In this document: positions 9,230 through 58,541 of the stretch, one piece after another | How positions within the stretch are numbered: position 1 is the first letter of the stretch | Layout of the letters: every line of letters begins with the position of its first letter | Source: an uncultured Bacilli bacterium | GTDB lineage: Bacteria; Bacillota_I; Bacilli_A; RFN20; CAG-631 | Length of the DNA stretch: 64,000 nt | Assembly: GCA_947599835.1 (NCBI GenBank) | Contig: CANQFQ010000002.1 | Span: 35,402-99,401, forward strand | Direction: 5' to 3' | The notes under the pieces: model-generated | Told to the model about the DNA's origin: nothing | The model's database searches: none | Seen by the model: only the letters and a program-made list of their open reading frames with translations | Translations under genes and position numbers: made by a program

Positions 9230-10096
9230 TTAATTTGTTTTCTTTGCACTTTCTAACAAGGCATCCATGAATTGAAAAAATGGATGATATTCTTTTCTTA
9301 ATTCATGAATATCATTTTCATTAACTGGAGTTTTTAAATTAGGTTCAAAAGAAGCCTTTTGTTCATCAATAGCAAAATATAAACGATTATTCGATAAAAG
9401 GACAAACATTCTTAAGGCACACATTTTTTTTACTTTTCGTAAAGTTTCAATGAGTAATTTCACGAATGAAGAGATATCTGTGTTCGGCTGTGTACTAAAA
9501 AATTCAAAATATTCATCAAAATTATCATTTCCTGTTTTTATTAAATATTGATAAGGCGTATTTTTCATACGGGATAATTGGCTATCGTTATGTTTCTTTC
9601 TTTCGGCAATAAAAAGACTCGCCTTTTCATCAGTTTCGATAGGAATGGATAAAAGTTTCCCACAAAAATCATAATCTTTGATATAAACTTTATTCGTTTT
9701 GATTTCATTGAAAGAAATCACAGTGCCTAATTCAAAATTAATTCCTTTATAATTCGCCAAAAAATAATAATCAGTTACATAATCCTTTCCTAAAGGAATG
9801 ATTGGGTTTTCTTTAATAAATTCTTTAGTAAATCTAGATTTACTAAATTCTAATTCATCGATATAAGTGTGTAACGTTTCTTCTATAATGATTTTTTTAT
9901 ACGTTTTCATTAATGGAAAAATGCATAAGTTAGCGAATAAAACGAGTAAAACTACCGCAAGAAAAAAGAAAATTCCACCCAGTAACCATCCTAGAAAAAT
10001 GGAGGGAATTGCTCCGGCAGCTACAATAATGATGCATCCGATAATAGAAAAAGCCATAATTTTTTTTCTTGTTGATGAAAACCGTTTGAAATTCAT
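9230..10096 (-). CDS. hypothetical membrane protein (two N-terminal TM helices, cytoplasmic C-terminal domain)
   Basis: 288-aa ORF with RBS AAGGAG 5 nt upstream; hydrophobic stretches IIGCIIIVAAGAIPSIFLGWLLGGIFFFLAVVLLVLF; no recognised catalytic motif. Confidence 0.5.
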   Translation of the reverse strand: MNFKRFSSTRKKIMAFSIIGCIIIVAAGAIPSIFLGWLLGGIFFFLAVVLLVLFANLCIFPLMKTYKKIIIEETLHTYIDELEFSKSRFTKEFIKENPIIPLGKDYVTDYYFLANYKGINFELGTVISFNEIKTNKVYIKDYDFCGKLLSIPIETDEKASLFIAERKKHNDSQLSRMKNTPYQYLIKTGNDNFDEYFEFFSTQPNTDISSFVKLLIETLRKVKKMCALRMFVLLSNNRLYFAIDEQKASFEPNLKTPVNENDIHELRKEYHPFFQFMDALLESAKKTN

Positions 10097-10141
10097 AAAA
10101 TCGCTCCTTATTGCTTTATAATAAACAAGTTTATTATAAAA

Positions 10142-10999
10142 TTAATCTAGTATATTGTCAATTAATTGCTTAAACGGAGTAGATAGTGGAACTAAAGGAA
10201 GTCGTAATTGATTTAATATTAATTTATGCTTGTATAAAATATATTTAATCGGTGCTGGACTTGATTCTATGAATATAATTTCGGCTAAAGTTTGAATATA
10301 TTCATATAATGAGATATTTTCAAAATGATGTTCAAGATAATCATCAATGAGTTCATAAACTTCGTTGCCATAAAAATTGGTTAATACAGAAATAATTCCA
10401 TCCCCATGATTTTTAAAAACATCAAGAATATAGCGATCTTCACCCCCATAGACTAATAAATTTGGTAATTCTTTCTTGATTGAAGAAATATATTGAATAT
10501 TTGTGCTTGCATGTTTAATACCAATAATATTATTGCAATCATTATATAAACGGATTAAAGTAGGAATGTTGATTTCTACTCCACACCGCGAAAGAATATT
10601 ATAAAGAATAATTGGTTTTTTGCTGATTTCATCGATAGATTTAAAATGCATATAAAGGCCTTCTTGAGAAGGTTTGTTATAATATGGGCAGGTAATTAAA
10701 TAGGCATCTACCTCTGTTTCATTCAGTATTTTAATTTGTTTAATTGTTTCGGCTGTGTTATTTGTTCCGATTCCAGCGATAATTTTAGTATTCTTGTTGA
10801 CAATTCTTTTAGCAAAACTAAATAAACTCAGTTTTTCTTTAAAAGAAAGGGTCGGCGCTTCCCCAGTAGTACCGCAAACGACAAAGGCATCAGTATGTTC
10901 TTGTTCTAGTTTTTTTAAAAGTGTGCCAAATGCACGATAATCAATGTTTTTATTTTCATCAAAAGGTGTTACAATAGCTGTTATAATTTTTCCAAACAT
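10142..10999 (-). CDS. dapA: 4-hydroxy-tetrahydrodipicolinate synthase
   Basis: 285 aa; motifs GTTGE, PYYNKPSQEG, catalytic Lys context GIKHAS, C-terminal RLPLVPL, all matching DapA family. Confidence 0.85.
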   Translation of the reverse strand: MFGKIITAIVTPFDENKNIDYRAFGTLLKKLEQEHTDAFVVCGTTGEAPTLSFKEKLSLFSFAKRIVNKNTKIIAGIGTNNTAETIKQIKILNETEVDAYLITCPYYNKPSQEGLYMHFKSIDEISKKPIILYNILSRCGVEINIPTLIRLYNDCNNIIGIKHASTNIQYISSIKKELPNLLVYGGEDRYILDVFKNHGDGIISVLTNFYGNEVYELIDDYLEHHFENISLYEYIQTLAEIIFIESSPAPIKYILYKHKLILNQLRLPLVPLSTPFKQLIDNILD

Positions 11000-11000
11000 A

Positions 11001-11834
11001 TTATTCCCCCTTGAAATAATCTCGAATTTCTTTTTTGAAACTAGTGGCCAAATTTTCCCCTATCAGTTTGACATATTTTTGACTAATGAATGTATATGGA
11101 AAAATAATTTTTCTATTTTTCATTTCTTTCATTTCTTCTTTATAATCTATGTAATAAATATTTTGAATATCATTTCTTTTAAATAATTTATTAAAAAATG
11201 AATCTTCAATGATTACATTATCAAACTGAATCGGTGAAGTGTTTATTTCTTCTTTTAATAAGATGCCATAACCATCTTCTTTTGCCTCAAGTAAGGATTG
11301 TAGTAAGGTATCACTTACAATCACAATCATTCGATTGGCGGTTAAAGTTTCACATAAAACTTTTGCATGATCATTATAACCAAGAATCAAAGTTTTTTGT
11401 TGATATAGTAATTTTGAGTTATCTTCAATTAATTGTTTGATTAATAAGTCACTTAAGGCAATTTTACTTGTAATATAAAAAGGTGAAATATTTGAAAAAT
11501 TAAAATGTGTAATATTGTATTTATCGATAAAATATTCCATGCGATCATTCGTATTTATTGTAAACCATAATGCATGTTGATGCGTTTTAAACACACTCTC
11601 ATCTAATGTTTTAAACCCATCTTTTAGATAAATTTTTTGATCTATTTGTTGCAAATCCAATAAAATAATGGCATCGACGAAATGATGTTCTAAAATAAGA
11701 TCACTAGCGGTAATTTTTTCAACATCTAATGCTTTTCCATAATCATTATTTTCCACTTTAATATCACAAAAGTCTTTGAGGTGTTCCACAAGATAAGGCA
11801 AGATGGGGCTATTTCCCAAAATATAAATTTTCAT
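11001..11834 (-). CDS. dipicolinate synthase subunit A (DpaA/SpoVFA)-like protein, divergent and lacking Gly-rich NAD motif
   Basis: 277 aa, collinear similarity to SpoVFA architecture by recall (MKIYILGN…, …KTLILGYNDHAKVLCETL… in place of GLGRTG); 1-nt gap to dapA as in spoVF-dapA operons; assignment tentative. Confidence 0.35.
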   Translation of the reverse strand: MKIYILGNSPILPYLVEHLKDFCDIKVENNDYGKALDVEKITASDLILEHHFVDAIILLDLQQIDQKIYLKDGFKTLDESVFKTHQHALWFTINTNDRMEYFIDKYNITHFNFSNISPFYITSKIALSDLLIKQLIEDNSKLLYQQKTLILGYNDHAKVLCETLTANRMIVIVSDTLLQSLLEAKEDGYGILLKEEINTSPIQFDNVIIEDSFFNKLFKRNDIQNIYYIDYKEEMKEMKNRKIIFPYTFISQKYVKLIGENLATSFKKEIRDYFKGE

Positions 11835-11884
11835 TGTATCCCTTCTTCACTGCTTTATACTATGCAAAATTTCTAAAAAGCGTT

Positions 11885-11912
11885 AAAAAAAAGAAGAGTA
11901 CGCTTCTTCTTT
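11885..11912 (-). terminator. weak Rho-independent terminator (minus strand) after small hypothetical gene
   Basis: AAGAAG…CTTCTT stem with short loop followed by T-run on minus strand; AT-rich. Confidence 0.3.
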
Positions 11913-12176
11913 TTATAAATGATATTTATTTTTTGTGATTTCTAAAAGTTTTAATAATTTTGGTTGACTTTCTTCGCCAAACGATTGTTTAACAAGTAAA
12001 ACGATCCGTTCATAATTGTTATGATTACATAAAACGAATTTATAATTTTGCTTAATAAATTCAACGGCTTTCGTAGCCTCTTCACAAGATAAAATGATGC
12101 CTTGATTGTAAGCATATTTTTGCATTGCATTTGGCGTCAAATAAGTTAGATAATTTTCAATCATTTCTTTAAACAA
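11913..12176 (-). CDS. small hypothetical cytoplasmic protein
   Basis: ORF conserved in frame; start uncertain (GTG 12185 inside GAGGTGG RBS, TTG 12176 with 5-nt spacing, or ATG 12164). Confidence 0.4.
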   Translation of the reverse strand: MFKEMIENYLTYLTPNAMQKYAYNQGIILSCEEATKAVEFIKQNYKFVLCNHNNYERIVLLVKQSFGEESQPKLLKLLEITKNKYHL

Positions 12177-13457: not shown

Positions 13458-14843
13458 TCAATTAATTTTTGGTAAACTTGCAGCAGCAATGGATTGACCT
13501 ACACGGCGATTCTTTTCATCGGGCATAGTTAAGTTAATATTTGCATATTCTGGAAATTCATTTTTAAGTACTTCTTTGGCCGTTTGTAAAATAATATTTC
13601 CACCCTTTCCGCTGGTTACGCGTCCTAAAAGTAAAATATGTTTAATTGCATAAAAGACACTATAATAAGCAATAGAATAACCTAAATAAGTTCCGATAGA
13701 TTCATATATTTTTTGTGCACGAGGATCATCTTGTTCAATTAATTTTTGAACAACTTTTAATTTTTCGGCTGGAGATAATGAACCATCAAGTTCAATGCCA
13801 GCAGCAGGTGCTAATTTAATAACTGAATCTTGAGAAAAATATTTTACACCACAGCCATAATCTAAAGACCATTCATCCACCATAGCATCTTGATTAAAAT
13901 CAACAGGTACAAAAGCAAGTTCATTTAACCATCCTGTTAAATTTCCGTTACTATCGACATATCCTGCGGCTTCACTCGTTCCCATAGCAATTCCTAAAAC
14001 GTTCGTATCTTTTAATTCCATAGCGCCAGCAAGTGCGGTTACATCTCCATCATTAGCAACTTCAAGAGGAATTGGGTGTCCCACTTCTTTTTCAAGTTGC
14101 TTAGCAATATCAATATACATCGTTTTCACATGTTTTTCGAATAATTCTTTATTGACTTTGACAAACAAAGAAGCAACCATAATTTTATTGTCAATATAAA
14201 CCCCCGCAGAACTAACACCAATGGCATCAATTTGATTATTCATTTTTTGGGCTGCAGTTTTCATTGCGGTATAGATGCCATCATAGTGATATTGCGGATT
14301 TTCTTGCGTTTTAGGAAACCAAACAACTTCTTCACTATATACCGTTTCACCATTGACAACAGCTGAAACTTTACGATCTGAACCCCCTGCGTCAAATCCA
14401 ATACGATTGCCTTCTAAATGGCCTCCTGCAGGAACCGAACTTTCTTTAACTTTTGGTAATTGATCGAAAGTACACTCCATAACTTCAAATGGCTTTTCAT
14501 ATACACCAGACATAAAATGAAAATCAAAATCCCGTAATCCGCCATCACGATAAGCATCTTTTATTTTGTTAAATAGCGTTTTTGATCCAGCGATATAAAT
14601 TTTATAACCACCAACGACCCAAAGCATGGATTTAATAATTCTTTCAACAATGAAAAAATTTCTTTCATCTGCGATACCATCTTGAAAAACATCTAAATCA
14701 AAACGATAAACATAGCCATTGTTTCTTTCCAAACAAATTGCCAAAGGCATCGATTTTTTGGAAGCTAAAACCTCTTTTTGAAAAGCTCTCAATTCTAAAA
14801 TAGCAGGTTGATAATTTTTATCTAAAATAGGAATATATTTCAT
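13458..14843 (-). CDS. ROK/BadF-like actin-fold ATPase (putative sugar kinase) with ~140-aa N-terminal extension
   Basis: phosphate-1 motif IGFDAGGSDRKVSAVV, ROK-like VANDGDVTALAGA motif, C-terminal glycine-rich GKGGNI; no ROK zinc CxCGxxGC motif. Confidence 0.5.
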   Translation of the reverse strand: MKYIPILDKNYQPAILELRAFQKEVLASKKSMPLAICLERNNGYVYRFDLDVFQDGIADERNFFIVERIIKSMLWVVGGYKIYIAGSKTLFNKIKDAYRDGGLRDFDFHFMSGVYEKPFEVMECTFDQLPKVKESSVPAGGHLEGNRIGFDAGGSDRKVSAVVNGETVYSEEVVWFPKTQENPQYHYDGIYTAMKTAAQKMNNQIDAIGVSSAGVYIDNKIMVASLFVKVNKELFEKHVKTMYIDIAKQLEKEVGHPIPLEVANDGDVTALAGAMELKDTNVLGIAMGTSEAAGYVDSNGNLTGWLNELAFVPVDFNQDAMVDEWSLDYGCGVKYFSQDSVIKLAPAAGIELDGSLSPAEKLKVVQKLIEQDDPRAQKIYESIGTYLGYSIAYYSVFYAIKHILLLGRVTSGKGGNIILQTAKEVLKNEFPEYANINLTMPDEKNRRVGQSIAAASLPKIN

Positions 14844-19445: not shown

Positions 19446-19477
19446 TTATGCGTCATTTTATGAAAGGAATGTCGGTT

Positions 19478-21475
19478 ATGAAACAATTAAAATTACTTTT
19501 ATGTCTTGTGCTTTTTGGAGGTACCATTTTAACGGGTACAAGTTGTACGAAAAAAAGTAAAACACAGCAAGAAATCAATTTAGGAATGACCCAAAATAAA
19601 GTCCAAACAATTTTAGGAAAAGCAGACAAAGTAAATGAAAATACATGGTATTATTATGATGCTAAAATTGTACAAAAAGAAAAGTCTTATTATCATTCTA
19701 TCAATCAAAATGATTCAAACAAAGCCAATGAAATTTTAGATGATTTGAAATCAATGACTTATTCATATACTTTAATTCGGTTTAATGAAGAAAATAATGT
19801 AAAAGAAGTTTTCGTCGATAAAAAACATCATTATAGTTTGGATAATGAATATGAATCTGTTCAAAAAGAACTAAAAAATGTGAATTTATCGGCAAATTTA
19901 ATTAATTACTATCTGAAGGGCGTGGATCAAAAGAAAACCATTGTAGATGGTTCATTAGATACTTTAACTTATCATGCCACATTTACAGATGGTAGTAGTA
20001 TGAAAAACTATCTGGATTTGGAAAATTGTATTCTTCAATTTGATAGTTTAGCACATCTTACTTGGTCTGATGCAATTTGTAATTACGAATCTTCCGTTAA
20101 AGCAGAAAATGTCGGTCAATTGGATGAAAATCAACGATTAACTTCATGGAAACAAAAGGGCAAAGTAGTACTTCCTGAAGATACCCTTGAAATTGTGGAT
20201 CATTTGTTTGAAAATCGGAATGATGTTTCTTCTATCATTTTACCAAAATCCTTGAAAAAAATTGGAAACGATGCTTTTTTAAATTGTAGCCAATTGCATG
20301 CCGTTTATTTTAATGGAACATTGAAGGATTGGTTAGGTATTCAATTTTCGAATGCGACATCCAACCCAATGAATTGTAAGGCCAATTTTTTCATTGGCAA
20401 TGAATTAGTTCAATCGATTGAAATTCCCGATACGATTAATGAATTAAATTATACTTTTAATGGATGCCTTTCATTAGAAGAAGTGACATTAAATCAATCT
20501 GTTTTAAAAATTGGAAAAGACACGTTTGCTCATTGTGAAAATATTAAGAAAGTGAATTATGTAGGTACCAATATTACAATCGCTGATTGGAATGCGATTA
20601 CATTTGAAAATGCCAGTTCAAATCCCTTACATTCAGGTGCGGATTTGTATTTTAATGATGAATTAGTGAGTGAAATTGAAATCGATTCTACAATGACGAC
20701 GCTTAATGCCTATGCATTTATGGGTTGTACTTCATTAACCCAAGTTACTTTTAAAGAAAATAGTCAGTTGCAAGCCATTCGAACTTCTGCTTTTGAAAAT
20801 TGTCGTTCATTAATTCACTTTCAATTACCAGATACGATAAATACGATTGAAGCGAATGCTTTTGCTGGTTGTCAAAAACTCGTTTTAAATGAATATGAAA
20901 ATAGTTTATATTTAGGTAATGAAATACATCCATATTTGGTTTTAGTAAGTGCAAAAAATATGAATATTTCCACGACTTCGATTCATTTTGATACCTTTAT
21001 GATTTTAGATAATGCATTTAAGTCTTGTTCTAAACTGACCCGCATTGAAATTTCTGAAAAAATACAATTTATAGGAAACGAAGCTTTTGCACATTGTATT
21101 TCATTAAAAGAAGTATCTTTTTCAAATGATAGTCAGTTGGTTAAACTTGAAAATTCAACTTTTTATCATTGCAGTGCATTAGAAAATATTGTTTTACCTC
21201 ATTCCATTGTTGATATCGGTACGAGTGCATTTGCTTATTGTGAGCAACTCAAAACCATTCAAATATCCGATCAATTAAAGTGTATTCAAACAACGGCTTT
21301 TGCGTGGTGCACGCATTTGACAAGTATCACCATTCCAGCAACGACGACCACTATTGGCGCGCATGCTTTTTATCAATGTCAATCCTTAACGATTTTATGT
21401 GCAACCTCGAGTGCCTTGGAAAGTTGGGATAGTGATTGGAATAGTAGTGATTGTCCAGTGCAATACCAAGCATAA
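19478..21475 (+). CDS. cell-surface lipoprotein with BspA-type leucine-rich repeats (LRR_5-like)
   Basis: signal peptide and lipobox LTGTSC; C-terminal two-thirds made of ~22-24 aa repeats of type I…IP.S/TI..IG..AF..C..L..I (e.g. IGNDAFLNCSQL, IGNEAFAHCISLKEV); start ATG 19478 (AAAGGAA RBS) preferred over 19448. Confidence 0.75.
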   Translation: MKQLKLLLCLVLFGGTILTGTSCTKKSKTQQEINLGMTQNKVQTILGKADKVNENTWYYYDAKIVQKEKSYYHSINQNDSNKANEILDDLKSMTYSYTLIRFNEENNVKEVFVDKKHHYSLDNEYESVQKELKNVNLSANLINYYLKGVDQKKTIVDGSLDTLTYHATFTDGSSMKNYLDLENCILQFDSLAHLTWSDAICNYESSVKAENVGQLDENQRLTSWKQKGKVVLPEDTLEIVDHLFENRNDVSSIILPKSLKKIGNDAFLNCSQLHAVYFNGTLKDWLGIQFSNATSNPMNCKANFFIGNELVQSIEIPDTINELNYTFNGCLSLEEVTLNQSVLKIGKDTFAHCENIKKVNYVGTNITIADWNAITFENASSNPLHSGADLYFNDELVSEIEIDSTMTTLNAYAFMGCTSLTQVTFKENSQLQAIRTSAFENCRSLIHFQLPDTINTIEANAFAGCQKLVLNEYENSLYLGNEIHPYLVLVSAKNMNISTTSIHFDTFMILDNAFKSCSKLTRIEISEKIQFIGNEAFAHCISLKEVSFSNDSQLVKLENSTFYHCSALENIVLPHSIVDIGTSAFAYCEQLKTIQISDQLKCIQTTAFAWCTHLTSITIPATTTTIGAHAFYQCQSLTILCATSSALESWDSDWNSSDCPVQYQA

Positions 21476-29381: not shown

Positions 29382-30644
29382 ATGGCCAATTATACACGAT
29401 GTCGTGGAACCTTAGATATTTATGATAAGCAAGCTTCTTTAATTCAAAAAGTAGAAAGGGCTTGTCAAAAAATTGCGCATCAATTTCATTATAGCTATAT
29501 TCAAACCCCAATGTTTGAATCGAGTGAATTATTTACACGTAGTAGTGGAGAAACAAGCGATATTGTAACCAAAGAAATGTATACATTTTTAGATAAAGGA
29601 AATCGGAGTATTACTTTACGACCTGAAGGAACCGCCGGTGTCATTCGGGCCATTATCGAAAACAAATTATATGCGACTAACGATTTACCCTTAAAATATT
29701 ACTATTCAGGTTCATTTTTTCGATATGAACGTCCACAAGCTGGAAGATATCGTGAATTTATGCAATTTGGGGTCGAAGTCGTAGGAACGCAATCTTATTT
29801 AGATGATGTTGAAACGATTTTATTTATCGTGGCTATTTTAAAAGAATTAAATTTAAATGAATACACCATTAAAATGAATAGTTTTGGAAATGAAATTTGT
29901 AAAAATCGTTATCGGGATACTTTGAAAAATTATTTTTGGCAATTTAAAGAACAACTTTGTGAAGATTGTCAAACCCGCTTGCAAGTGAATCCTTTACGTG
30001 TATTAGATTGTAAAGTGGATCATGACTTTTTCAAAACGAAAGAGATTCCTACGGCTGTATCTTGTTTAGATGCCCAAGCACAAGAAGAATTTGCTTTGGT
30101 TCAAAAAATTTTAACACAACAAAAAGTTCCTTATATTGTCGATCATCAATTAGTTCGTGGACTGGATTATTATACCGGATTAATTTTTGAAATCGATATT
30201 CAAGCTGTTGATGGTAAGGTGTATACCATTGGTGGAGGGGGTCATTATAGTAATCTTGTAAAAGAATTAGGCGGTCCTGATTTATCTTGCGTAGGTTTTG
30301 GATTAGGAATCAATCGACTTGCTTTAATTTTACAAGAACAATATCAAGACAAATCAATGGACACGACACCATCAATTTATATCATGCCATTATGTGAAGA
30401 TGCTATTTTTATTGCCATGGATATGGCTAAACAACTTCGTGAACACGATTATGTTGTCACCATTGAAAATGGTAAGAAAAGTGTTTCTTCCATGTTTAAA
30501 TATGCTTCAAAAAAACAGTTTAGTTATGCCATTGTCATTGGTGAAAATGAAATCAATGCGAAAAAAGTTAATCTAAAAAATATGCAAACACAACAACAAG
30601 AAATGGTTGCTGTAGATGAAGTTTTAAATGTTTTAAGGGGGTAA
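29382..30644 (+). CDS. hisS: histidine--tRNA ligase
   Basis: 420 aa class II aaRS with HisRS motifs (…LRPEGTAGVIRA…, …GGGHYSNL…); only 12 nt after relA, no T-box leader. Confidence 0.92.
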   Translation: MANYTRCRGTLDIYDKQASLIQKVERACQKIAHQFHYSYIQTPMFESSELFTRSSGETSDIVTKEMYTFLDKGNRSITLRPEGTAGVIRAIIENKLYATNDLPLKYYYSGSFFRYERPQAGRYREFMQFGVEVVGTQSYLDDVETILFIVAILKELNLNEYTIKMNSFGNEICKNRYRDTLKNYFWQFKEQLCEDCQTRLQVNPLRVLDCKVDHDFFKTKEIPTAVSCLDAQAQEEFALVQKILTQQKVPYIVDHQLVRGLDYYTGLIFEIDIQAVDGKVYTIGGGGHYSNLVKELGGPDLSCVGFGLGINRLALILQEQYQDKSMDTTPSIYIMPLCEDAIFIAMDMAKQLREHDYVVTIENGKKSVSSMFKYASKKQFSYAIVIGENEINAKKVNLKNMQTQQQEMVAVDEVLNVLRG

Positions 30645-30648
30645 TCAT

Positions 30649-32385
30649 ATGCAATTAAAGCACCGGACACATCATAATAATGAATTGCGTTTGACAGATG
30701 TAGGTCAAATTGTAGAATTAAAAGGATGGGTCGCTAAAAAAAGAAATTTAGGCTCATTAGTTTTTATTGATTTACGCGATAAAGAAGGGATTACACAATT
30801 AGTTTGTGATGAAAAATTCGAAAAAATCACTACAAAAATTAGAAATGAATATGTGATTTATGCTAAAGGAAAAGTCATTGAACGAACAGCTAAAAATCCA
30901 AATTTAGCCACTGGTGATATTGAAGTAGAGGTTGAAGAATTACAAATTATCAACACTTCTGAAACGCCTCCAATGATTATTGCAGCGGAAACGGATGCTT
31001 TAGAAGAGACACGATTAAAATATCGTTATTTGGATTTAAGACGTCCACAACTTCAACAAGCACTCAAATTACGGTATGAAATTACTAAATCGATTCGAGC
31101 TTATTTTGATGCTCTCAATTTTATTGAAATTGAAACACCGATTATTGCTAAAACAACACCAGAAGGGGCTAGAGATTATTTAATTCCAAGTCGTGTCAAT
31201 AAGGGAAAATTTTATGCTTTACCTCAATCTCCACAAATTTTTAAACAATTATTAATGGTGGCTGGATTTGAAAGATATTTTCAAATTGCTAGATGTTTTA
31301 GAGATGAAGATCTAAGAGCGGATCGTCAAATGGAATTTACTCAAGTGGATTTTGAAGTGAGTTTCTTTGAAATTGAAGAATTTTATGCTTTAGTTGAAGG
31401 ATTGTTTGTCAAAATCATGAAAGATATCAAAAATATTGATTTGAAAGTACCTTTTCAACGACTTACATGGCATGATGCGATGAATCGTTATGGCAGTGAC
31501 AAGCCGGATTTACGTTTTAAAATGGAATTAGTCGATGTCAGTGATATTTTTAAAGACACGACGGTCCCTTTTTTACAAAATGAATGTGTCAAAGCCATCA
31601 AAGTTGAAAAAGGCAACACCATTACACGAAAAGAGATTGATCACTATACCGAACTTGTTAAAAAATATAAGGCTAAAGGACTTTGTTTTGTTCGCATGAA
31701 TCATGGTGTATTAGAAGGTAGTAGTGCAAAATTGCTCACAGAAACCGAAAAAGAAAAATTGATTCAAACGTTAGATTTGCAAGATACCGATTTGGTCTTT
31801 TTTATCAGTGATCAATGGTTAATTACAGTTACAGCCCTCGGTGCTTTAAGAAATGCTTTAGCAAAAAAATTAGACATCATTGATGAAAATGAGTATAATT
31901 TCTTGTGGATAGTTGATTTTCCAATGTATGAATATAATGATGAGGGTGAGTTATGTGCGATGCATCATCCATTCACTTCTTATCGAAAAGAAGATGAAAA
32001 ATATCTTGAAAGCGATCCATTAAAAGTTCGTGCAAATGCCTATGATGTTGTTTTAAATGGGTATGAATTAGGTAGTGGTAGCGTGCGTATTTTTAATCAA
32101 GATGAACAACGCAAAGTGTTTGAAAAATTAGGTTTATCTGATGAAGACATTCGGTATAAATTTGGTTTCTTTGTGGATGCCTTAAAATATGGTACACCAC
32201 CTCATTGTGGCATGGGACTTGGATTAGATCGCATTGCTATGATTTTAAATCATAGTCAATCCTTACGTGATGTCATTGCTTTTCCAAAAAATGCCTCAGC
32301 GATTTGCCCAATGTCTGAAGCACCATCTACCGTAAGTCAAAAACAATTGGATGAATTAGCCATTCAAATTAAAATGGAGAAATAA
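30649..32385 (+). CDS. aspS: aspartate--tRNA ligase
   Basis: 578 aa; OB-fold anticodon domain, class II motifs FRDEDLRADRQ, GLGLDR. Confidence 0.92.
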   Translation: MQLKHRTHHNNELRLTDVGQIVELKGWVAKKRNLGSLVFIDLRDKEGITQLVCDEKFEKITTKIRNEYVIYAKGKVIERTAKNPNLATGDIEVEVEELQIINTSETPPMIIAAETDALEETRLKYRYLDLRRPQLQQALKLRYEITKSIRAYFDALNFIEIETPIIAKTTPEGARDYLIPSRVNKGKFYALPQSPQIFKQLLMVAGFERYFQIARCFRDEDLRADRQMEFTQVDFEVSFFEIEEFYALVEGLFVKIMKDIKNIDLKVPFQRLTWHDAMNRYGSDKPDLRFKMELVDVSDIFKDTTVPFLQNECVKAIKVEKGNTITRKEIDHYTELVKKYKAKGLCFVRMNHGVLEGSSAKLLTETEKEKLIQTLDLQDTDLVFFISDQWLITVTALGALRNALAKKLDIIDENEYNFLWIVDFPMYEYNDEGELCAMHHPFTSYRKEDEKYLESDPLKVRANAYDVVLNGYELGSGSVRIFNQDEQRKVFEKLGLSDEDIRYKFGFFVDALKYGTPPHCGMGLGLDRIAMILNHSQSLRDVIAFPKNASAICPMSEAPSTVSQKQLDELAIQIKMEK

Positions 32386-48867: not shown

Positions 48868-51800
48868 ATGAAAAAATCAATTAGCAAAACTATATTCAAA
48901 GGAGTTTCGTTTTCTTTTTTGTGTGCAAGTTTATTTTTAACTTCTTGTTCATCCAATACAAAGAAAAATTGGAATCCAAAAAATAGCGATTCTTCAAAAT
49001 GGGAAGATGTATCCACTTATAAACGCTTATTAGCCCCTGCTAATTTAAAATACGATGCTTCCAAATCCATCCTTTCATGGTCAGCTGTGGATGGTGCAAG
49101 AGCTTATGTTGTTAATTTGAATGGTGAGATTATTAGTTCGCGTGTTACCACTTGTGAATATGAATTTACCTTGTCAAATTTAGAATTGCTTGCAGCTAGT
49201 CAAACCAGCCTAATTAGTGTTCGTGCATTAGCAAAAACAGATGTATATGAAGATTCTCCATATGCTAGTATTACGATTAATCGAACTGATGCTACATCTA
49301 ATTTTACTTATCGGTTATCCGATGATGATCAAACATTAGAAATTACAGGTTTTGCCAATAACATTGATACCACGAAATATGAAGATGAAGGTCTTACATT
49401 TCCGAACACCATTGATGGATTTACTGTTACGCGGATTGCTGACAGAGCCTTTTATCGAAATACCTATCGATTTGATGTTTCGTTTGAAGAAGGATATTTG
49501 TCTATTGGTGAATCTGCGTTTTATAATTCACGTTTTGTGAGTATAACTTTACCAACGACATTAAAAACAATTGAAGACCACGCTTTCCAATCTAGTCGTA
49601 TTAACACAATAATACTTCCTCGAAATATAGAAACTTTGGGTGTGGGTGCTTTCCAAGAAAGTTACTTAGAAACCGTGACTTTTGATGAAAATATATCGCT
49701 TCAAACAATTCCTGAAAATTGTTTTGATTCAACTTCTTTACAATCAGTTGTTTTACCTGCTTCTGTAAAGCAAATTGAAAAAGAAGGTTTTGCAAGAATT
49801 TCTACTTTGAAAGAACTTAAATTTGCTCCCGATGGAAAAACGAGTCTATTAGAATCCATTGGTGAATCTGCATTTATCGGAGCAACTTCTTTAAAAAATA
49901 TTGTTTTTCCGGCTTCTTTAAGAGAAATTAAAGACTCTGCATTTGCTTCGACAGTGGGTTCAAATTGTTCTTATGAAACCATTATGTTTGATACGGATTC
50001 TCGTATAGAAACCATTGGTAATTCCGCTTTTATTCGTTCTTTGAATAGTAATAATTTCAAATATTTTGGAGTCAAAGTGGAAGATAGTGCTGCACTTCCA
50101 GAAGTGGCTACTATTGTATTTCCTAAAACGTTAAAATCTATTGGAATAAGCGCTTTTCAAACTGCTGCTGTTGTTGAAATTCAATTTGAACCTGGAAGTG
50201 TGATTCAAAATATTGATAATCAAGCCTTTTATCAAAATTCACGATTAGTATCGGTTCAACTTCCTGCATCATTGGAAACCATTGGCGAATCTGCATTTAA
50301 TGGATGTACAAATCTTGAGATCGTTGATGCAACTTCTCTCGATGCACAACTTAAAAAAGTTTATGCTAATTCCTTTAATGGAACCAAATGGTATGAGGCT
50401 TCTAATTATATTGTCTTAAATAATGTTTTAATTAAAGATGTCGATCCGATAGACACACCAAGAGAAACGCTTCAAATAGCCGAAGGAATCAAATACATTG
50501 CGAATGGTCTTTATAGTAATGGAAAATATACTTCCATTACTTTACCTAATTCGTTGATTGGTATTTATGAATCAGCTTTTAGTAATAATAGTGAAATTAC
50601 TGCCATCTCAATTCCAAGCAATGTCGAATTTATTGATCAAACGGCATTTTATCGTTGTGAAAAGGTTGAAACTTTGATTTTTGAACCAAATAGTCATCTT
50701 CAAACGATTGGGGTGGGTGCCTTTTCTGGATTAAAATTGTCCTCTATCCGTATTCCTGATAGTGTCATTACCATTGATAGTAGTGCTTTTTCAAACAATA
50801 CGAATGTTAGTTCCGTTATTTTTGAAGGAACTCCTAAAGTTGAAACGATTGGTGCGAATAGTTTCTATGGAATGTCACTATTAAATACATTTACTTTACC
50901 TGATTCTGTAAAAACCATTGGTCAATTAGCTTTTGCTATTGATGCCAATGCTATGAGTGGATTAACTTCTTTTGAAATTTCAAATCAAAGCAATCTTCAA
51001 TTTATTGGCAATTCTGCATTTAGTAATCAACAATACTTAACCACTTTTAAATTACCGGATAGTGTTGAAATTATTGATGATAATGCTTTTTATAACACAA
51101 AATTATTACAAGATTTTCAAATCAGTAATACCTCACAACTTAAAGAATTACATGCTTCTGTTTTTGATGGTAGTGGCATTACTTCCTTTACCCTTCCTGC
51201 AAGTATGGAATATTTAAGCAATGCTGCTTTTAGTGGAGCTAGTGCCTTAACCAATGTTACTTTTGATGATCAATCTTTTGCAAATGCCCTAGAAGAAAAT
51301 CAAACTTTATTTGCAGATACTTTCAGAAATTGTCTTTCACTTCGTGAAATTCATTTACCACAACACATTTTAAATATTGAAAGAAATGCTTTCAACGGAT
51401 GTAGTAATTTACTTACGATTACTACGTATGCTTCAACAATTGATTCTAGTGCATTTGATGGTACGGCATTTGCCGATTCATTTGAAAATGGCATGATTAC
51501 TTTAAATCATGTATTGGTAAAATATTCTGGAAATGATGCAACGATAGTTTTGCCAAATGATATTATCACGATTAATGAAAATGCTTTTGTGGACAAAACA
51601 AATTTAGTTTCCATTACTCTTCCTGCATCTTTGGTTACAATCAAGGATAATGCTTTTGCAAATTGTGAAAACTTAACCACCATTGTTTTACCAAATAATG
51701 CACAATTAGAAACGATTGGCAATCATGCTTTTGCAAATTGTTATGCTTTAACGAATTTTAATTTCACTTCACATTTAAAAACAATGGGTGAATTTGCCTT

Positions 51801-53073
51801 TTTAAATTGTCGTAATCTTGGTGCTGCAAATTTAGCAAGTACCCAACTTGAGACCATTCCATTTGCGGCCTTTGCGAATAACCGTAAATTGCAAGAAGTG
51901 ACTTTACCAGAAACGCTTCAAACGATTGATACGGCTGCTTTCTATTTCGATAGTATTACAAGTATTTCTATTCCAAGTAGTGTGGTAAGTGTTGCAGCTT
52001 ATGCATTTGCATTTAATATTTCTTCTACGAATGCCCCTGCAATTCAAATCACGACAATGATGCAAGAAAATACTTTAGAAACAATTGTCAATCATAAAAA
52101 TAGTTTAATTGAAAATATAAGCAATTATGATTTTACGATTGAAAATTTATCTTTTGCTCTCACGGGTCAATTAGAAACTGTTGGAACCTATGCTTTTAGT
52201 GGCTCAAAAATCACAGAATTATTACTTCCTAATCATGATAATGCAAGTATTTATCTTGAAGCCGATGCTTTTAGTTATGCGACAAAACTTACAAAAGTTA
52301 GTTTTGAAGTGAATGTTTCCTTTGATCTTGGCGTCTTAAGAGGAGCCACTTCTTTACAAGAAATCGAACATAATAGTGAGATTCTTACTTTTACTGCATT
52401 TGGCAATACGGTGACTTCTTTACCAAAAAGCCTAGAAAAAATTGTGATTTCCGATGGTTCAACTAAAATTTTAGATGATGCTTTTAATGGCTATTCCTTT
52501 ATTAAAGAAATTGTTTTACCTGATACCATTCAATCGATTGGTAAACATGCTTTCTATGGTTGTCGCCAATTAACCCAAATCAATCTTGAAAATGTTGAAA
52601 CCATTGGTGATGAAGCTTTTGTCGGTTGTGTTCAATTAAGTCAAATTACCATGGGAACATCTTTAACAAAAATCGGAAATAAAGCTTTCATGGCAACAGC
52701 TTATCTTAATGGTAAGCAAGATGCAGACAATCCATTTATTATTGAAAATGGTATACTATTACTTTACACCGGAAATGAAAAGGAAGTTACACTTCCAGAG
52801 GGTGTTGTTCGGATTGCTGGCGGAGCCTTTAGTGGCAATGCAACAGTCGAAAAAATTATTGCTTCTAGTCAGTTAAAATATATCGATGCCAATGCTTTTG
52901 ATAGTGCAATTCATCTTACGAATTTAGATTTAACGCATTGTACTTCGATTGTCGAAATCGGCTTATATTTATTTAACGATGCGGCGAAAGAATTTAAGGT
53001 AACAGTAACGAATGTGGATGATTATGTTGAATCTAGTGTTTATTGGAAATTATATAGAGATTATCTAGCTTAA
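48868..53073 (+). CDS. giant cell-surface lipoprotein: N-terminal Fn3-like module followed by >40 BspA-type leucine-rich repeats
   Basis: 1401 aa; signal peptide and lipobox LTSCSS; LSWSAVDGARAYVVNLNG module; long array of ~23-aa repeats (…IGESAFYNS.F.SITLP.TLKTI…); AGGAGGG RBS. Confidence 0.8.
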   Translation: MKKSISKTIFKGVSFSFLCASLFLTSCSSNTKKNWNPKNSDSSKWEDVSTYKRLLAPANLKYDASKSILSWSAVDGARAYVVNLNGEIISSRVTTCEYEFTLSNLELLAASQTSLISVRALAKTDVYEDSPYASITINRTDATSNFTYRLSDDDQTLEITGFANNIDTTKYEDEGLTFPNTIDGFTVTRIADRAFYRNTYRFDVSFEEGYLSIGESAFYNSRFVSITLPTTLKTIEDHAFQSSRINTIILPRNIETLGVGAFQESYLETVTFDENISLQTIPENCFDSTSLQSVVLPASVKQIEKEGFARISTLKELKFAPDGKTSLLESIGESAFIGATSLKNIVFPASLREIKDSAFASTVGSNCSYETIMFDTDSRIETIGNSAFIRSLNSNNFKYFGVKVEDSAALPEVATIVFPKTLKSIGISAFQTAAVVEIQFEPGSVIQNIDNQAFYQNSRLVSVQLPASLETIGESAFNGCTNLEIVDATSLDAQLKKVYANSFNGTKWYEASNYIVLNNVLIKDVDPIDTPRETLQIAEGIKYIANGLYSNGKYTSITLPNSLIGIYESAFSNNSEITAISIPSNVEFIDQTAFYRCEKVETLIFEPNSHLQTIGVGAFSGLKLSSIRIPDSVITIDSSAFSNNTNVSSVIFEGTPKVETIGANSFYGMSLLNTFTLPDSVKTIGQLAFAIDANAMSGLTSFEISNQSNLQFIGNSAFSNQQYLTTFKLPDSVEIIDDNAFYNTKLLQDFQISNTSQLKELHASVFDGSGITSFTLPASMEYLSNAAFSGASALTNVTFDDQSFANALEENQTLFADTFRNCLSLREIHLPQHILNIERNAFNGCSNLLTITTYASTIDSSAFDGTAFADSFENGMITLNHVLVKYSGNDATIVLPNDIITINENAFVDKTNLVSITLPASLVTIKDNAFANCENLTTIVLPNNAQLETIGNHAFANCYALTNFNFTSHLKTMGEFAFLNCRNLGAANLASTQLETIPFAAFANNRKLQEVTLPETLQTIDTAAFYFDSITSISIPSSVVSVAAYAFAFNISSTNAPAIQITTMMQENTLETIVNHKNSLIENISNYDFTIENLSFALTGQLETVGTYAFSGSKITELLLPNHDNASIYLEADAFSYATKLTKVSFEVNVSFDLGVLRGATSLQEIEHNSEILTFTAFGNTVTSLPKSLEKIVISDGSTKILDDAFNGYSFIKEIVLPDTIQSIGKHAFYGCRQLTQINLENVETIGDEAFVGCVQLSQITMGTSLTKIGNKAFMATAYLNGKQDADNPFIIENGILLLYTGNEKEVTLPEGVVRIAGGAFSGNATVEKIIASSQLKYIDANAFDSAIHLTNLDLTHCTSIVEIGLYLFNDAAKEFKVTVTNVDDYVESSVYWKLYRDYLA

Positions 53074-57530: not shown

Positions 57531-58541
57531 TTGAAAAAGCGTTATTTATTATTTTTAATAGGATTAACTGTCTTTAGTAGTCATGCCAATCAAACGCAAG
57601 GCGTCAATGCACAATCCCTTTATTTACCAGGAGGGGAAAATATTGCCATTGAAATTAAAGCCGATGGTTTATTAGTTACTGGCACTTATGATATTCAGAC
57701 CGATAAGGGAACATATAATCCTTCAAGGGACAATGATATTTGGCGTGGTGACTTGATTTATGAAGTGAATCATCAAAAAATCACGTCGATCAAAGATTTG
57801 CCAAATGTGATTGAAGATAAGAACCAACAAGAATATCATCTACCGATCAAATTATATCGAGATCACCTTTCTTTAGATAAAAATCTACGTTTGATTAAAG
57901 TTTCTAAAGATGGCTCTTTAAAAACTGGATTATTAGTTAAAGAAAGAATATTAGGAATTGGAACGGTTTCTATTTATAATACACAAACGAAAACTTATGC
58001 GGCTTTAGGGCATCAATTTACGGATAATGACTTTGAAAATGTCGTTGAATTAACGACAGGAAACATTTATGATAGTGAAGTCGTAGGTATTCGGAAAAGT
58101 AATAATGGGAGCCCAGGAGAAAAAGTTGCACAAATTGATGAAAATAAGCATTTAGGTTCGATTATTAAAAACAATCCATACGGCATTTATGGACATATCG
58201 ACCAATTGCCCAATAAAAAGGGAATGGAAATTGCAAAGCAAGATGAAATCAAAACCGGGAATGCAGAAATATGGACTGTAATGAAAAATAAAACCATCAG
58301 TAAATATAAAATTAAAATTACCCATTTAAAACAACAAGAAAATATCGCACCGAAAGGCATTACTTTTGAAATCGTTGATAAAGATCTATTAAAGATAAGT
58401 AATGGGATTGTTCAAGGAATGAGTGGCTCGACGATTGTTCAAAACAATAAAATAATTGGCGCAGTCACGCATGTTCTTGTTGATGATGTAAAAAAAGGAT
58501 ATGGGATTTATATCGAATGGATGATACAGGAAATGGAATAA
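57531..58541 (+). CDS. spoIVB: SpoIVB peptidase (stage IV sporulation serine peptidase, S55 family)
   Basis: signal-anchor N-terminus, PDZ-like region, catalytic GMSGS and HV motifs; TTG start with strong RBS; conserved recN-spoIVB-spo0A order. Confidence 0.85.
   Translation: MKKRYLLFLIGLTVFSSHANQTQGVNAQSLYLPGGENIAIEIKADGLLVTGTYDIQTDKGTYNPSRDNDIWRGDLIYEVNHQKITSIKDLPNVIEDKNQQEYHLPIKLYRDHLSLDKNLRLIKVSKDGSLKTGLLVKERILGIGTVSIYNTQTKTYAALGHQFTDNDFENVVELTTGNIYDSEVVGIRKSNNGSPGEKVAQIDENKHLGSIIKNNPYGIYGHIDQLPNKKGMEIAKQDEIKTGNAEIWTVMKNKTISKYKIKITHLKQQENIAPKGITFEIVDKDLLKISNGIVQGMSGSTIVQNNKIIGAVTHVLVDDVKKGYGIYIEWMIQEME

Follow-up and report, generated by a model that had tools for sequence, protein, structure and literature searches.

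The 64-kb stretch of DNA analysed here (the window) carries, directly upstream of dapA, a 277-codon reading frame (X) whose product is a homologue of dipicolinate synthase subunit A (DpaA, or SpoVFA). We put the probability at about 0.55 that X is, taken as a whole, a vestigial DpaA retained as an accessory of a dipicolinic acid (DPA) module that is driven by sigma-K. According to this proposal, X would be the orthologous descendant of DpaA/SpoVFA, in the ancestral slot at the head of a sporulation dpaA-(dpaB)-dapA operon from which dpaB was deleted in an uncultured, Erysipelotrichaceae-like gut lineage. After the loss of dpaB, the NADP-type site and most family-invariant DpaA residues would have decayed, with the two-domain fold kept. 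X and dapA would now form a translationally coupled two-gene unit, set off by an upstream terminator and by a separate sigma-70 promoter downstream, in which the DapA product (HTPA/dihydrodipicolinate) feeds DPA synthesis. X itself would be an accessory, non-catalytic or differently catalytic, that binds the DapA product or DapA, or that docks an unlinked flavoprotein, and the oxidation step would be supplied by a gene outside the window. The features to which we refer are as follows.

10133-10161, minus strand: sigma-70-type promoter TTGACA-17-TATAAT, overlapping the dapA stop (12/12 match)
10142-10999, minus strand: dapA, 4-hydroxy-tetrahydrodipicolinate synthase, 285 aa (TIGR00674)
11001-11834, minus strand: X, degenerate DpaA (SpoVFA) homologue, 277 aa, without the GxGxxG loop
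11005-11012, minus strand: dapA Shine-Dalgarno sequence AAGGGGGA, inside the last X codons
11840-11849, minus strand: X ribosome-binding site TGAAGAAGGG, read from the sequence
11856-11883, minus strand: sigma-K-type promoter of X-dapA, with -35 AC at 11882-11883, a 17-nt spacer and -10 CATAGTATA at 11856-11864
11884-11915, minus strand: hairpin and U-run after the DUF2624 gene, likely terminator (RNA fold)
43842-44537, minus strand: sigK, predicted trans-acting reader of the X-dapA promoter (NF004471, 299 bits; cut-off 252)

The dapA product and the relationship of X to DpaA

The initial annotation had described a clear DapA 1 nt downstream of the 277-aa frame, and we could verify the coordinates, all of the quoted motifs and the assignment itself: the dapA product scores 283 bits with the equivalog HMM TIGR00674, above the 206-bit cut-off, and 227 bits with PF00701. 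The motifs GTTGE (residues 43-47), YYNKP (106-110), YNILSR (133-138), GIKHAS (160-165) and RLPLVPL (266-272) can be read in the sequence, as can T44/T45, Y107, Y133, R138 and the Schiff-base lysine K162 within GIKHAS; by reference to E. coli DapA, we take these residues to be the catalytic ones.

The homology of X to DpaA was visible only through fold search or profile-profile comparison. A Pfam scan of X matched no model, DpaA_N (PF16924) included, TIGR02853 (cut-off 320 bits) gave no match, and the DpaA model NF006162 gave 22 bits for X (E 8.5e-5) and 27 bits for its relative P0009, against a cut-off of 261 bits. Pairwise BLAST and phmmer comparison of B. subtilis DpaA with the window found nothing, hhalign of X against one single DpaA sequence was insignificant (E 0.24), and a profile search of PDB sequences with X returned just an ADH match with an E-value of 1.9. 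The likeness to DpaA that had been proposed initially thus failed at the HMM cut-off, yet it was borne out by other means. Alignment by hhalign of the X profile to a DpaA profile, for which the reference alignment consisted of 6 sequences only, gave 98 % (E 2.5e-13); an exhaustive search of 1.84e9 proteins with X had DpaAs as its only matches outside the X family; and the closest structure in the fold search was the DpaA two-domain fold, with an N-terminal DpaA_N domain and a Rossmann domain. By these three criteria, X is a DpaA homologue.

In comparisons with the structures from B. subtilis (2RIR) and B. halodurans (3D4O) and with the models NF006162/TIGR02853 and PF16924, X differs from DpaA/SpoVFA in an identity of 13-14 %, in lying under every curated cut-off, and in having G-Y-(N/S/Q)-x-x-x in place of GxGxxG. 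As the initial annotation had read it, GYNDHA (X residues 152-157) aligns to GLGRTG at positions 161-166 of B. subtilis DpaA. The central glycine of this loop (DpaA G163) is N, S or Q in all 9 members of the X family, and the first glycine is Ser in one of them, P0007. The DpaA-invariant R185 is replaced in X by an invariant aspartate, D175; the GGD near the DpaA N-terminus, P64, G102 and G139 are gone; and of the 10 positions that are invariant in DpaA and fall within the aligned part, X keeps 2 (G161 and G197). The C-terminal third of X could not be aligned to DpaA by sequence, the catalytic-half motifs NTIP, DLAS-PGG-D and LPG-AP are without counterpart, and X contains 8 glycines versus 24 in B. 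subtilis DpaA. Judged from these replacements, X is a strongly decayed yet conserved DpaA whose cofactor-binding motifs are lost; we infer a loss of NADP binding, and X most likely is no longer an NADP-dependent oxidoreductase. X retains a basic residue ahead of beta-1, most members have the first glycine, and an invariant aspartate follows 18 residues past the loop. Except for the missing central glycine, this is the classical NAD fingerprint, and X may bind a nucleotide.

The retained residues bear on the possibility, which we consider unlikely, that X is a still-catalytic, DpaB-independent single-subunit DPA synthase that oxidizes or dehydrates the DapA product via a re-modelled nucleotide site. 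The G152...D175 spacing fits the GxGxxG-x17/18-D fingerprint, and such a site may prefer NAD, given that beta-2 ends with the invariant Asp175. X is under purifying selection, its best-kept block is the Rossmann beta2-alphaC-beta3 segment (NRMIVIVSDRLLxxLxEAKxDGYGILLKEE), and the gene shares a sporulation promoter with dapA, to which it is coupled. Also, Turicibacter sp. H121 has been reported to be without dpaB and spores of T. sanguinis contain DPA, which, coming from different strains, is a hint only. Against a catalytic X stand the replacement of the central loop glycine in every member, and of the first in P0007, the missing motifs and unalignable C-terminal third described above, and the sister lineages, described below, that dropped X and retained dapA behind a sigma-K-type promoter.

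Conservation of X and of its pairing with dapA

The X-dapA pairing was kept in 9 of the 9 X-lineage loci examined, and the pairing is therefore not a matter of chance (X-lineage assemblies: GCA_052837625.1; CANQVX01, Lapin-014 bin57; CAAEBM01, HGM10901; CAAFHD01, HGM10900; also a 597-kb contig that carries P0209). At least 6 lineages have an intact X of 276-277 codons. The X proteins are 45-58 % identical to each other, which is comparable to the flanking IspG, RNase J and DUF proteins, and the family alignment has 39 invariant columns. Synonymous divergence is saturated (dS 1.0-1.6), and dN/dS is 0.22-0.62 and below 1 in 10 of 10 pairs. A pseudogene is ruled out by ORF integrity and dN/dS; by these measures of sequence change X is under purifying selection and still functional.

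It is highly improbable, in our view, that X has no protein function and that the DNA of the reading frame is kept only for the sake of dapA, whose expression relies on the promoter, leader and ribosome-binding site carried there. The non-synonymous rate of X is some 4-5 times that of dapA, whose product is 84-92 % identical across the X-lineage loci (dN/dS 0.05-0.14); the conserved C-terminal KGE/KEA codons of X double as the dapA Shine-Dalgarno sequence; and sister lineages have a clean deletion of X, with the promoter directly before dapA. However, at 28-31 % GC an unconstrained 830-nt frame would gain stops and indels well before dS reached the values observed, and the codons of X have been kept. 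The dN/dS values, the invariant columns and an identity on par with that of the adjacent proteins likewise argue against this explanation, and the AF2 model of X is confident, as for a foldable protein.

Signals for transcription and translation of X-dapA

The hairpin at 11884-11915 has a predicted energy of -10.6 kcal/mol (z = -2.7 versus shuffles), and equivalent hairpins or T-runs were seen in loci L001, L003, L016 and L018. This putative terminator likely insulates the X-dapA unit.

A sigma-K promoter upstream of position 11834 had been suggested as a check on the initial annotation, and the motif is indeed there, at 11856-11883 on the minus strand, and is conserved in orthologous loci. 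We counted as sigma-K-type a -35 AC, a 16-17 nt spacer and a -10 CATAnnnTA, properly placed upstream of a gene. Sigma-E and sigma-K have the -10 box in common, and AC rather than ATA at -35 points to sigma-K (PMC3789822, which also gives the sigma-K consensus). The X promoter is an exact match to AC-N17-CATANNNTA, the only one in the X-dapA region, and lies 21 nt ahead of the X ATG. The window and L001-L003 share an identical TGCATAnTATAA but differ in the spacer, and L006 and L015/L016 carry the motif as well; in summary form, the conserved promoter before X reads AAC-N16/17-GCATAnTATA. The same promoter type precedes a lone dapA in L010-L013 and dpaA in L018. The motif alone occurs in the window at chance frequency (3 found versus 2.3 expected), with a background of 9e-5 per nt, or ~1 % per 100-nt region. 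From the motif taken together with its conservation, we infer that X-dapA would depend on sigma-K in vivo, and because this sigma-K-type promoter is conserved, the unit would probably be expressed at a late stage of sporulation, in the mother cell. Sigma-K transcribes dpaAB in both B. subtilis and C. difficile, and the SigK regulon of B. subtilis also includes dapA (PMC3789822; PMC9024752). The sigK product of the window scored ~90 bits higher with NF004471 than with SigE models; the window also encodes SpoIVB and Spo0A, in agreement with the sporulation genes listed initially.

Candidate sigma-70 promoters for X-dapA or within X had just 9/12 matches, at background frequency, and were rejected; the -35 region of the conserved X promoter is unlike TTGACA. 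No lysine riboswitch or other Rfam element was found in the whole window.

With regard to translation, GAAGAAGGGA/GAAAGAGGGA is conserved as the X ribosome-binding site in orthologous loci. The X TAA stop and the dapA ATG are separated by a single T, and a GGAG/GGGG box lies 8-10 nt ahead of the dapA ATG in 5 of the 5 loci compared. The location of the dapA Shine-Dalgarno sequence within X suggests that translation of the two genes is coupled. On the 3' side, the promoter at 10133-10161 is, by its perfect match, a separate predicted vegetative promoter of the DUF3137 gene, and delimits the X-dapA unit there.

Loci with and without dpaB

The X locus has no dpaB, asd or dapG between X and dapA, and, as had been noted initially, no dpaB comes next: dapA is followed by the gene for a DUF3137 protein and then by that for RNase J, and tblastn and phmmer searches with a validated DpaB query found nothing in the 64-kb window and L001-L003. 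Pfam and NCBIfam scans of 21 window ORFs, together with a reading of the other translations, revealed no ETF gene in the 64-kb window; neither a dpaB nor an ETF gene was found in the window and the 9 X-lineage loci with their ~20-kb flanks, and no flavoprotein gene in L004-L008 and L015-L017. The downstream RNase J and a YmfI-like SDR mirror the spoVF-dapA-rnjB neighbourhood of B. subtilis. This synteny supports the earlier suggestion of a locus left over from the spoVF-dapA arrangement, as do two dpaA-dpaB-dapA loci with the same promoter architecture (L014 and L018, below).

X could also be a paralogue or leftover beside a canonical DPA pathway encoded elsewhere (dpaA-dpaB, an orphan dpaB or etfAB), either pairing with an unlinked flavoprotein or drifted from DPA; we regard this as unlikely. 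Low-GC gut bacteria do include loci with an orphan dpaB behind a sigma-K-like promoter (L021-L023) and with dpaAB pairs without dapA (L024-L027), and the X-lineage genomes were inspected over ~64 kb plus ~20-kb flanks only. Yet the X-lineage sequence inspected yielded no dpaB, dpaA or ETF gene, and the orphan-dpaB loci differ in composition from the window (r ~0.2 for tetranucleotides, versus 0.46-0.93 for X-lineage DNA); none of the unlinked dpaB or dpaAB loci examined could be tied to the window by tetranucleotide composition. Moreover, X sits exactly in the place of dpaA, behind a promoter of the same type, and orthology accounts for this better than paralogy.

Orthology of this kind, with X as a vestigial DpaA, can be set beside L014 and L018, which are Erysipelotrichaceae loci (Amedibacillus/Longicatena-like) from low-GC gut Bacillota, like the X lineage, and have short DpaA-DpaB-DapA-Cse60 operons that include dapA. 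As in the X locus, the dpaA-like gene lies right behind a terminator and an AC-N16-CATA(G/C)TAT(A/G) promoter; the order of terminator, AC-N16, CATAGTATAA and ribosome-binding site was observed at the head of the L018 operon, with a near-match in L014. DpaA from these loci is also divergent (75 bits, no Pfam match, 252-256 aa). It retains, however, GYG(H/V)CG, the Arg after beta-2 and LPG, all of which X has lost, and its gene is followed by that of a bona fide DpaB (223 bits, over the cut-off), whereas X is without a partner. This correlation of motif with partner suggests that the nucleotide site is maintained only where DpaB is present.

To our knowledge, DPA synthesis in spore formers without DpaAB is partly solved, with EtfA in some clostridia and a route unknown in others, and the contributions of DpaA and of DpaB have never been separated from one another. 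The EtfA route of Clostridium perfringens and other cluster I clostridia makes DPA without a linked DpaAB pair; literature reports on EtfA-type clostridia and Turicibacter describe no DpaA-like relic beside dapA, whereas the X lineage has one. The X lineage resembles such DPA makers as a spore former that would be expected to produce DPA with no DpaAB pair linked, and X-dapA would have a role in DPA synthesis. Distinctly unlikely, in our estimate, is a bolder version, in which X and DapA are a minimal two-gene, sigma-K-driven DPA module without DpaB or a canonical NAD(P) site, and X, a re-purposed Rossmann-fold protein, traps the DapA product, which is unstable, and either favours its dehydration/aromatization or passes it to a generic cellular oxidant. 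If true, such a module would add a third route to dipicolinate to those of DpaAB and EtfA, and the conserved role of DpaA would be substrate handling, not hydride transfer. The X lineage offers a natural dissection, with a DpaA-fold protein that lacks a linked DpaB and the nucleotide motifs and is still selected beside dapA behind a sporulation promoter. The practical impact of the finding is modest for now. Curated DpaA models miss relics such as X, and genome-based calls of sporulation or DPA capacity for uncultured gut Bacillota can therefore err either way.

The nearest relatives show both an earlier state (dpaA-dpaB-dapA) and a later one, dapA alone. The latter is seen in the sister lineages L010-L012, in which DapA is 68-73 % identical and falls in the same DapA clade, the neighbouring genes are the same (DUF3137 and RNase J), and an AC-N16-CATA(G/T)TATA promoter lies directly upstream of dapA with X missing; tblastn found no X remnants in the sister loci. 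The sister lineages include the MAG GCA_022767485.1. The lone dapA seems to lie one step further along the same reduction. Since sigma-K-dapA persists in these lineages although X is gone, dapA does not need X for its role there, and the loss of X argues that X would be dispensable, and not a stand-alone synthase. One of these sister loci is labelled as an Erysipelotrichaceae bacterium MAG.

The dapA locus and the identity of its upstream gene

The initial annotation, which described dapA as lying 1 nt downstream of a 277-aa ORF (here X) read as a degenerate dipicolinate synthase subunit A (DpaA, SpoVFA) with no subunit B (DpaB, SpoVFB) following, was confirmed as to the gene arrangement and largely upheld in its reading: X is a relic of DpaA in degenerate form, is coupled to dapA without a DpaB beside it, and follows a conserved putative sigma-K-type promoter. 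The elements of the locus are as follows.

10133-10161, minus strand: perfect sigma-70-type TTGACA-17-TATAAT, overlapping the dapA stop and serving the DUF3137 gene
10142-10999, minus strand: dapA (ORF list, TIGR00674, PF00701)
11001-11834, minus strand: X, 277 aa (ORF list)
11856-11883: putative sigma-K-type promoter AC-N17-CATAGTATA, exact consensus match
11884-11915: hairpin and U-run, free energy -10.6 kcal/mol, z = -2.7
GAAGGG in the 78-nt gap upstream of X: X ribosome-binding site

A single T separates the X stop codon (TAA) from the dapA ATG, and these coordinates confirm the 1-nt spacing; the Shine-Dalgarno box for dapA, AAGGGGGA, lies inside the final X codons and has a counterpart in all five loci compared. 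The dapA product is unambiguously DapA (TIGR00674, 283 bits against a cut-off of 206 bits; PF00701, 227 bits), and all of the DapA motifs initially quoted were found in it. As had been claimed, no dpaB lies downstream of dapA in the window, where the next genes encode a DUF3137 protein and then RNase J, and the SigK, SpoIVB and Spo0A genes are all within the window. The sigK gene (43842-44537, minus strand) is unbroken, without a skin-like insertion, and its N-terminal extension resembles a pro-sequence; this extension together with spoIVB (57531-58541) suggests Bacillus-style pro-sigma-K processing.

Standard annotation gives no Pfam match for X. The similarity to DpaA initially proposed was weak on the NCBIfam DpaA model NF006162 (22 bits, E = 8.5e-5; cut-off 261 bits), and was sustained by exhaustive and profile-profile searches. 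The X family is tiny: its relatives number 8 among 5.8 billion proteins and are all metagenomic, and when 1.84 billion representatives were searched exhaustively with HMMER it formed only 2-3 clusters at 50% identity. The sole matches outside the family with a library-wide E < 1e-3 were five proteins, every one a DpaA (148-302 bits on NF006162), and comparison of the X-family profile with a six-member DpaA alignment gave a probability of 98% and E = 2.5e-13 over 200 columns. The B. subtilis SpoVFA and SpoVFB sequences used for reference scored 640 bits with the B. subtilis DpaA structure 2rir_A and 349 bits with the DpaB model TIGR02852, respectively, which validated them. The homology of X to DpaA is shown by three independent lines, including the exhaustive search and the profile-profile comparison; X represents a previously unannotated form of this known family, in a narrow uncultured lineage. 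One X-family variant of 255 aa (P0008, from a 1.4-kb ENA contig) is identical to another member, P0004, to about residue 185 and unrelated thereafter; it is a disrupted allele or else the product of chimeric assembly.

Motifs lost and selection on X

In the hhalign register, X G152-Y-N-D-H-A157 falls on DpaA G161-L-G-R-T-G166, so that X indeed lacks the Gly-rich dinucleotide motif. The central loop glycine, invariant in DpaA, is N, S or Q across all X-family members, and in one of them (P0007) the first loop Gly is also replaced, by Ser. In Rossmann folds the choice of NADP is usually made at the end of beta-2; the residue there is an invariant Arg185 in DpaA and an invariant Asp175 in X. Also absent from X are the N-terminal GGD, P64, G102 and G139 of DpaA; 2 of 10 DpaA-invariant positions within the aligned region survive (G161, G197), and X has 8 glycines against 24 in B. 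subtilis DpaA. The C-terminal third of DpaA carries NTIP, DLAS-PGG-D and LPG-AP; its equivalent in X no longer aligns by sequence and superposes structurally on DpaA. With these losses, X is therefore placed outside DpaA by every sequence-based membership criterion, with the fold retained.

X still has a lysine ahead of beta-1, hydrophobic core positions and, 18 residues past the loop, an Asp; only the key glycine is missing from the classical NAD fingerprint, and X may bind a nucleotide. That X is still a catalytic synthase, independent of DpaB and with a re-modelled, possibly NAD-type site, seems unlikely to us; no more than a hint of such a route is that dpaB is reportedly missing from Turicibacter sp. 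H121, while T. sanguinis spores have dipicolinic acid (DPA) at levels like those of C. difficile.

Pairwise comparison covered the orthologues of the window and four related loci (L001, L002, L003, L006), ten pairs in total. X is undisrupted in all five (276-277 codons), synonymous sites are saturated (dS 1.0-1.6), and dN/dS ranges from 0.22 to 0.62 in X against 0.05-0.14 in dapA. Intact ORFs at such dS and dN/dS led us to reject X as a pseudogene, and they also contradict the very improbable reading in which the X protein does nothing and the ORF is retained only for dapA expression signals. Between-lineage identity of X (45-58%) is similar to that of its neighbours IspG, RNase J, DUF2624 and DUF3137; the unusually conserved gene is that for DapA (84-92%). 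The X family has 39 invariant columns, the strongest block being NRMIVIVSDRLLxxLxEAKxDGYGILLKEE. A 461-aa ROK-family protein (13458-14843, minus strand; weak Pfam/NCBIfam match), with an N-terminal extension of ~145 aa that matches nothing, is 86-91% identical across X-lineage loci, conserved like DapA and far above its neighbours.

Promoter and operon boundaries

The 78-nt gap upstream of X holds three elements: the hairpin and U-run, the sigma-K-type motif and the ribosome-binding site. The sigma-K consensus used was a -35 AC, a spacer of 16-17 nt and a -10 CATAnnnTA; the -10 box is common to sigma-E and sigma-K, whereas the -35 differs, ATA versus AC (PMC3789822). The motif lies upstream of position 11834, where the initial annotation had raised a sigma-K promoter, and is conserved in X-lineage loci: TGCATAnTATAA and AAC recur in the window, L001, L002, L003, L006 and L015/16, with the spacer sequence free. 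Such motifs are not commoner than chance in the whole window (3 found, 2.3 expected; pooled background 9e-5 per nt, or ~1% per 100-nt region), and the X-dapA region contains one only. The case for this promoter rests on position and conservation, from which we infer its function and expression timing.

No sigma-70-like site above background was found before X or dapA, and an Rfam scan found no riboswitch or other element for X-dapA. At gathering thresholds, Rfam gave zero matches in the 64-kb window: neither a tRNA nor a riboswitch, nor a T-box leader before hisS-aspS (29382-32385). The upstream boundary elements and the separate DUF3137 promoter therefore delimit X-dapA alone as the putative sporulation unit. 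Sigma-K transcribes dpaAB in B. subtilis and C. difficile (PMC3789822), and the B. subtilis SigK regulon includes dapA (PMC9024752).

In the most divergent X-lineage MAG (L003, 8063-9941), yqfD (sporulation) and phoH, not ispG-DUF2624, lie upstream of X. Because promoter and X-dapA are unchanged there despite the different upstream genes, the unit appears to move as a block.

Related loci and the proposed role of X

Our reading covered the window and, for related loci, flanks of roughly 20 kb. The order X-dapA-DUF3137-RNase J is kept in 9/9 X-lineage loci examined, which belong to MAGs of uncultured "Bacilli" in human and rabbit gut. Sequence identity divides the DapA relatives into three tiers: the X lineage (79-93% identity), sister lineages (65-73%; one labelled Erysipelotrichaceae bacterium MAG) and all others (44% or less). 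In three sister loci (L010-L012), tblastn found no trace of X; dapA still adjoins DUF3137 and RNase J, and each has AC-N16-CATA(G/T)TATA immediately before dapA. An AC-N16-type promoter motif also precedes dapA in L013, a lone and more distant copy. The DUF3137 membrane protein gene (9230-10096, minus strand, in the window) adjoins dapA in every lineage examined, as an inverted pair in L011 and L012.

Two Amedibacillus/Longicatena-like Erysipelotrichaceae encode a short DpaA, DpaB, DapA and Cse60, in this order.

L014, 4662-6846: dpaA-dpaB-dapA-cse60 operon
L018, 4250-6424: dpaA-dpaB-dapA-cse60 operon

Like X, their DpaA is divergent (252-256 aa, 75 bits against the 261-bit cut-off, no Pfam match), but unlike X it retains GYG(H/V)CG, Arg and LPG; curated DpaA models under-call this clade. 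Their DpaB is bona fide (223 bits, cut-off 156 bits). At the head of the L018 operon stand a terminator, AC-N16-CATAGTATAA and an RBS, the layout found before X, and the L014 promoter is a near-match to it (CATACTATG).

Taken with the B. subtilis order, spoVFA-spoVFB-asd-dapG-dapA-rnjB, these operon states suggest a three-stage reduction as the most economical history. An ancestral sigma-K promoter-dpaA-dpaB-dapA would have become sigma-K promoter-X-dapA in the X lineage, by deletion of dpaB and decay of DpaA motifs, and then sigma-K promoter-dapA in the sister lineages, by deletion of X; X-dapA would be a natural intermediate. The nucleotide-site motifs are kept where DpaB is present and gone where it is absent, and this correspondence suggests that only cooperation with the flavoprotein subunit keeps the site in place.

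In the best-supported reading, to which we give a probability of roughly 0.55, the locus would be the lineage's mother-cell module supplying DPA precursor, and X a vestigial DpaA, no longer an NADP-dependent oxidoreductase, that persists as an accessory by binding the DapA product or DapA, or by docking an unlinked flavoprotein; we infer the ligand binding, timing and DPA content. A rather unlikely alternative places canonical dpaAB, an orphan dpaB or etfAB (the clostridial EtfA-type route) elsewhere, with X as partner or drifted paralogue. Unlinked DPA genes are possible, since related low-GC gut bacteria have separate dpaA (270 aa, DpaA_N)-dpaB pairs without dapA, beside a Mur ligase gene (L024-L027; L024 9173-10576), and an orphan DpaB-like flavoprotein gene with no dpaA or dapA nearby (L021-L023; L022 5001-5579). 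Tetranucleotide composition tied neither to the window (r ~0.5 for the pair and ~0.2 for the orphan; references, 0.85-0.93 within the window and 0.46-0.80 for X-lineage loci). Ahead of the orphan gene lies a sigma-K-like AC-N16-CATATAATA, and the gene's flanks hold liaF, an integrase gene and ackA-pta.

An apparent mobile anti-phage defence island, lacking from the window, separates an ABC-transporter gene from a ROK-like gene in L004 and L002 (1629-6855 in each); this insertion carries genes for a phage-type integrase, a Band_7/zinc-ribbon protein and a TIR_2-domain protein of 876 aa, and an ORF of 110 aa. The window also encodes large lipoprotein-like surface proteins of 675 and 1401 aa with leucine-rich BspA-type repeats (19448-21475 and 48868-53073, both plus strand) and an ankyrin-repeat protein (1389-2729), unusual in a bacterium.
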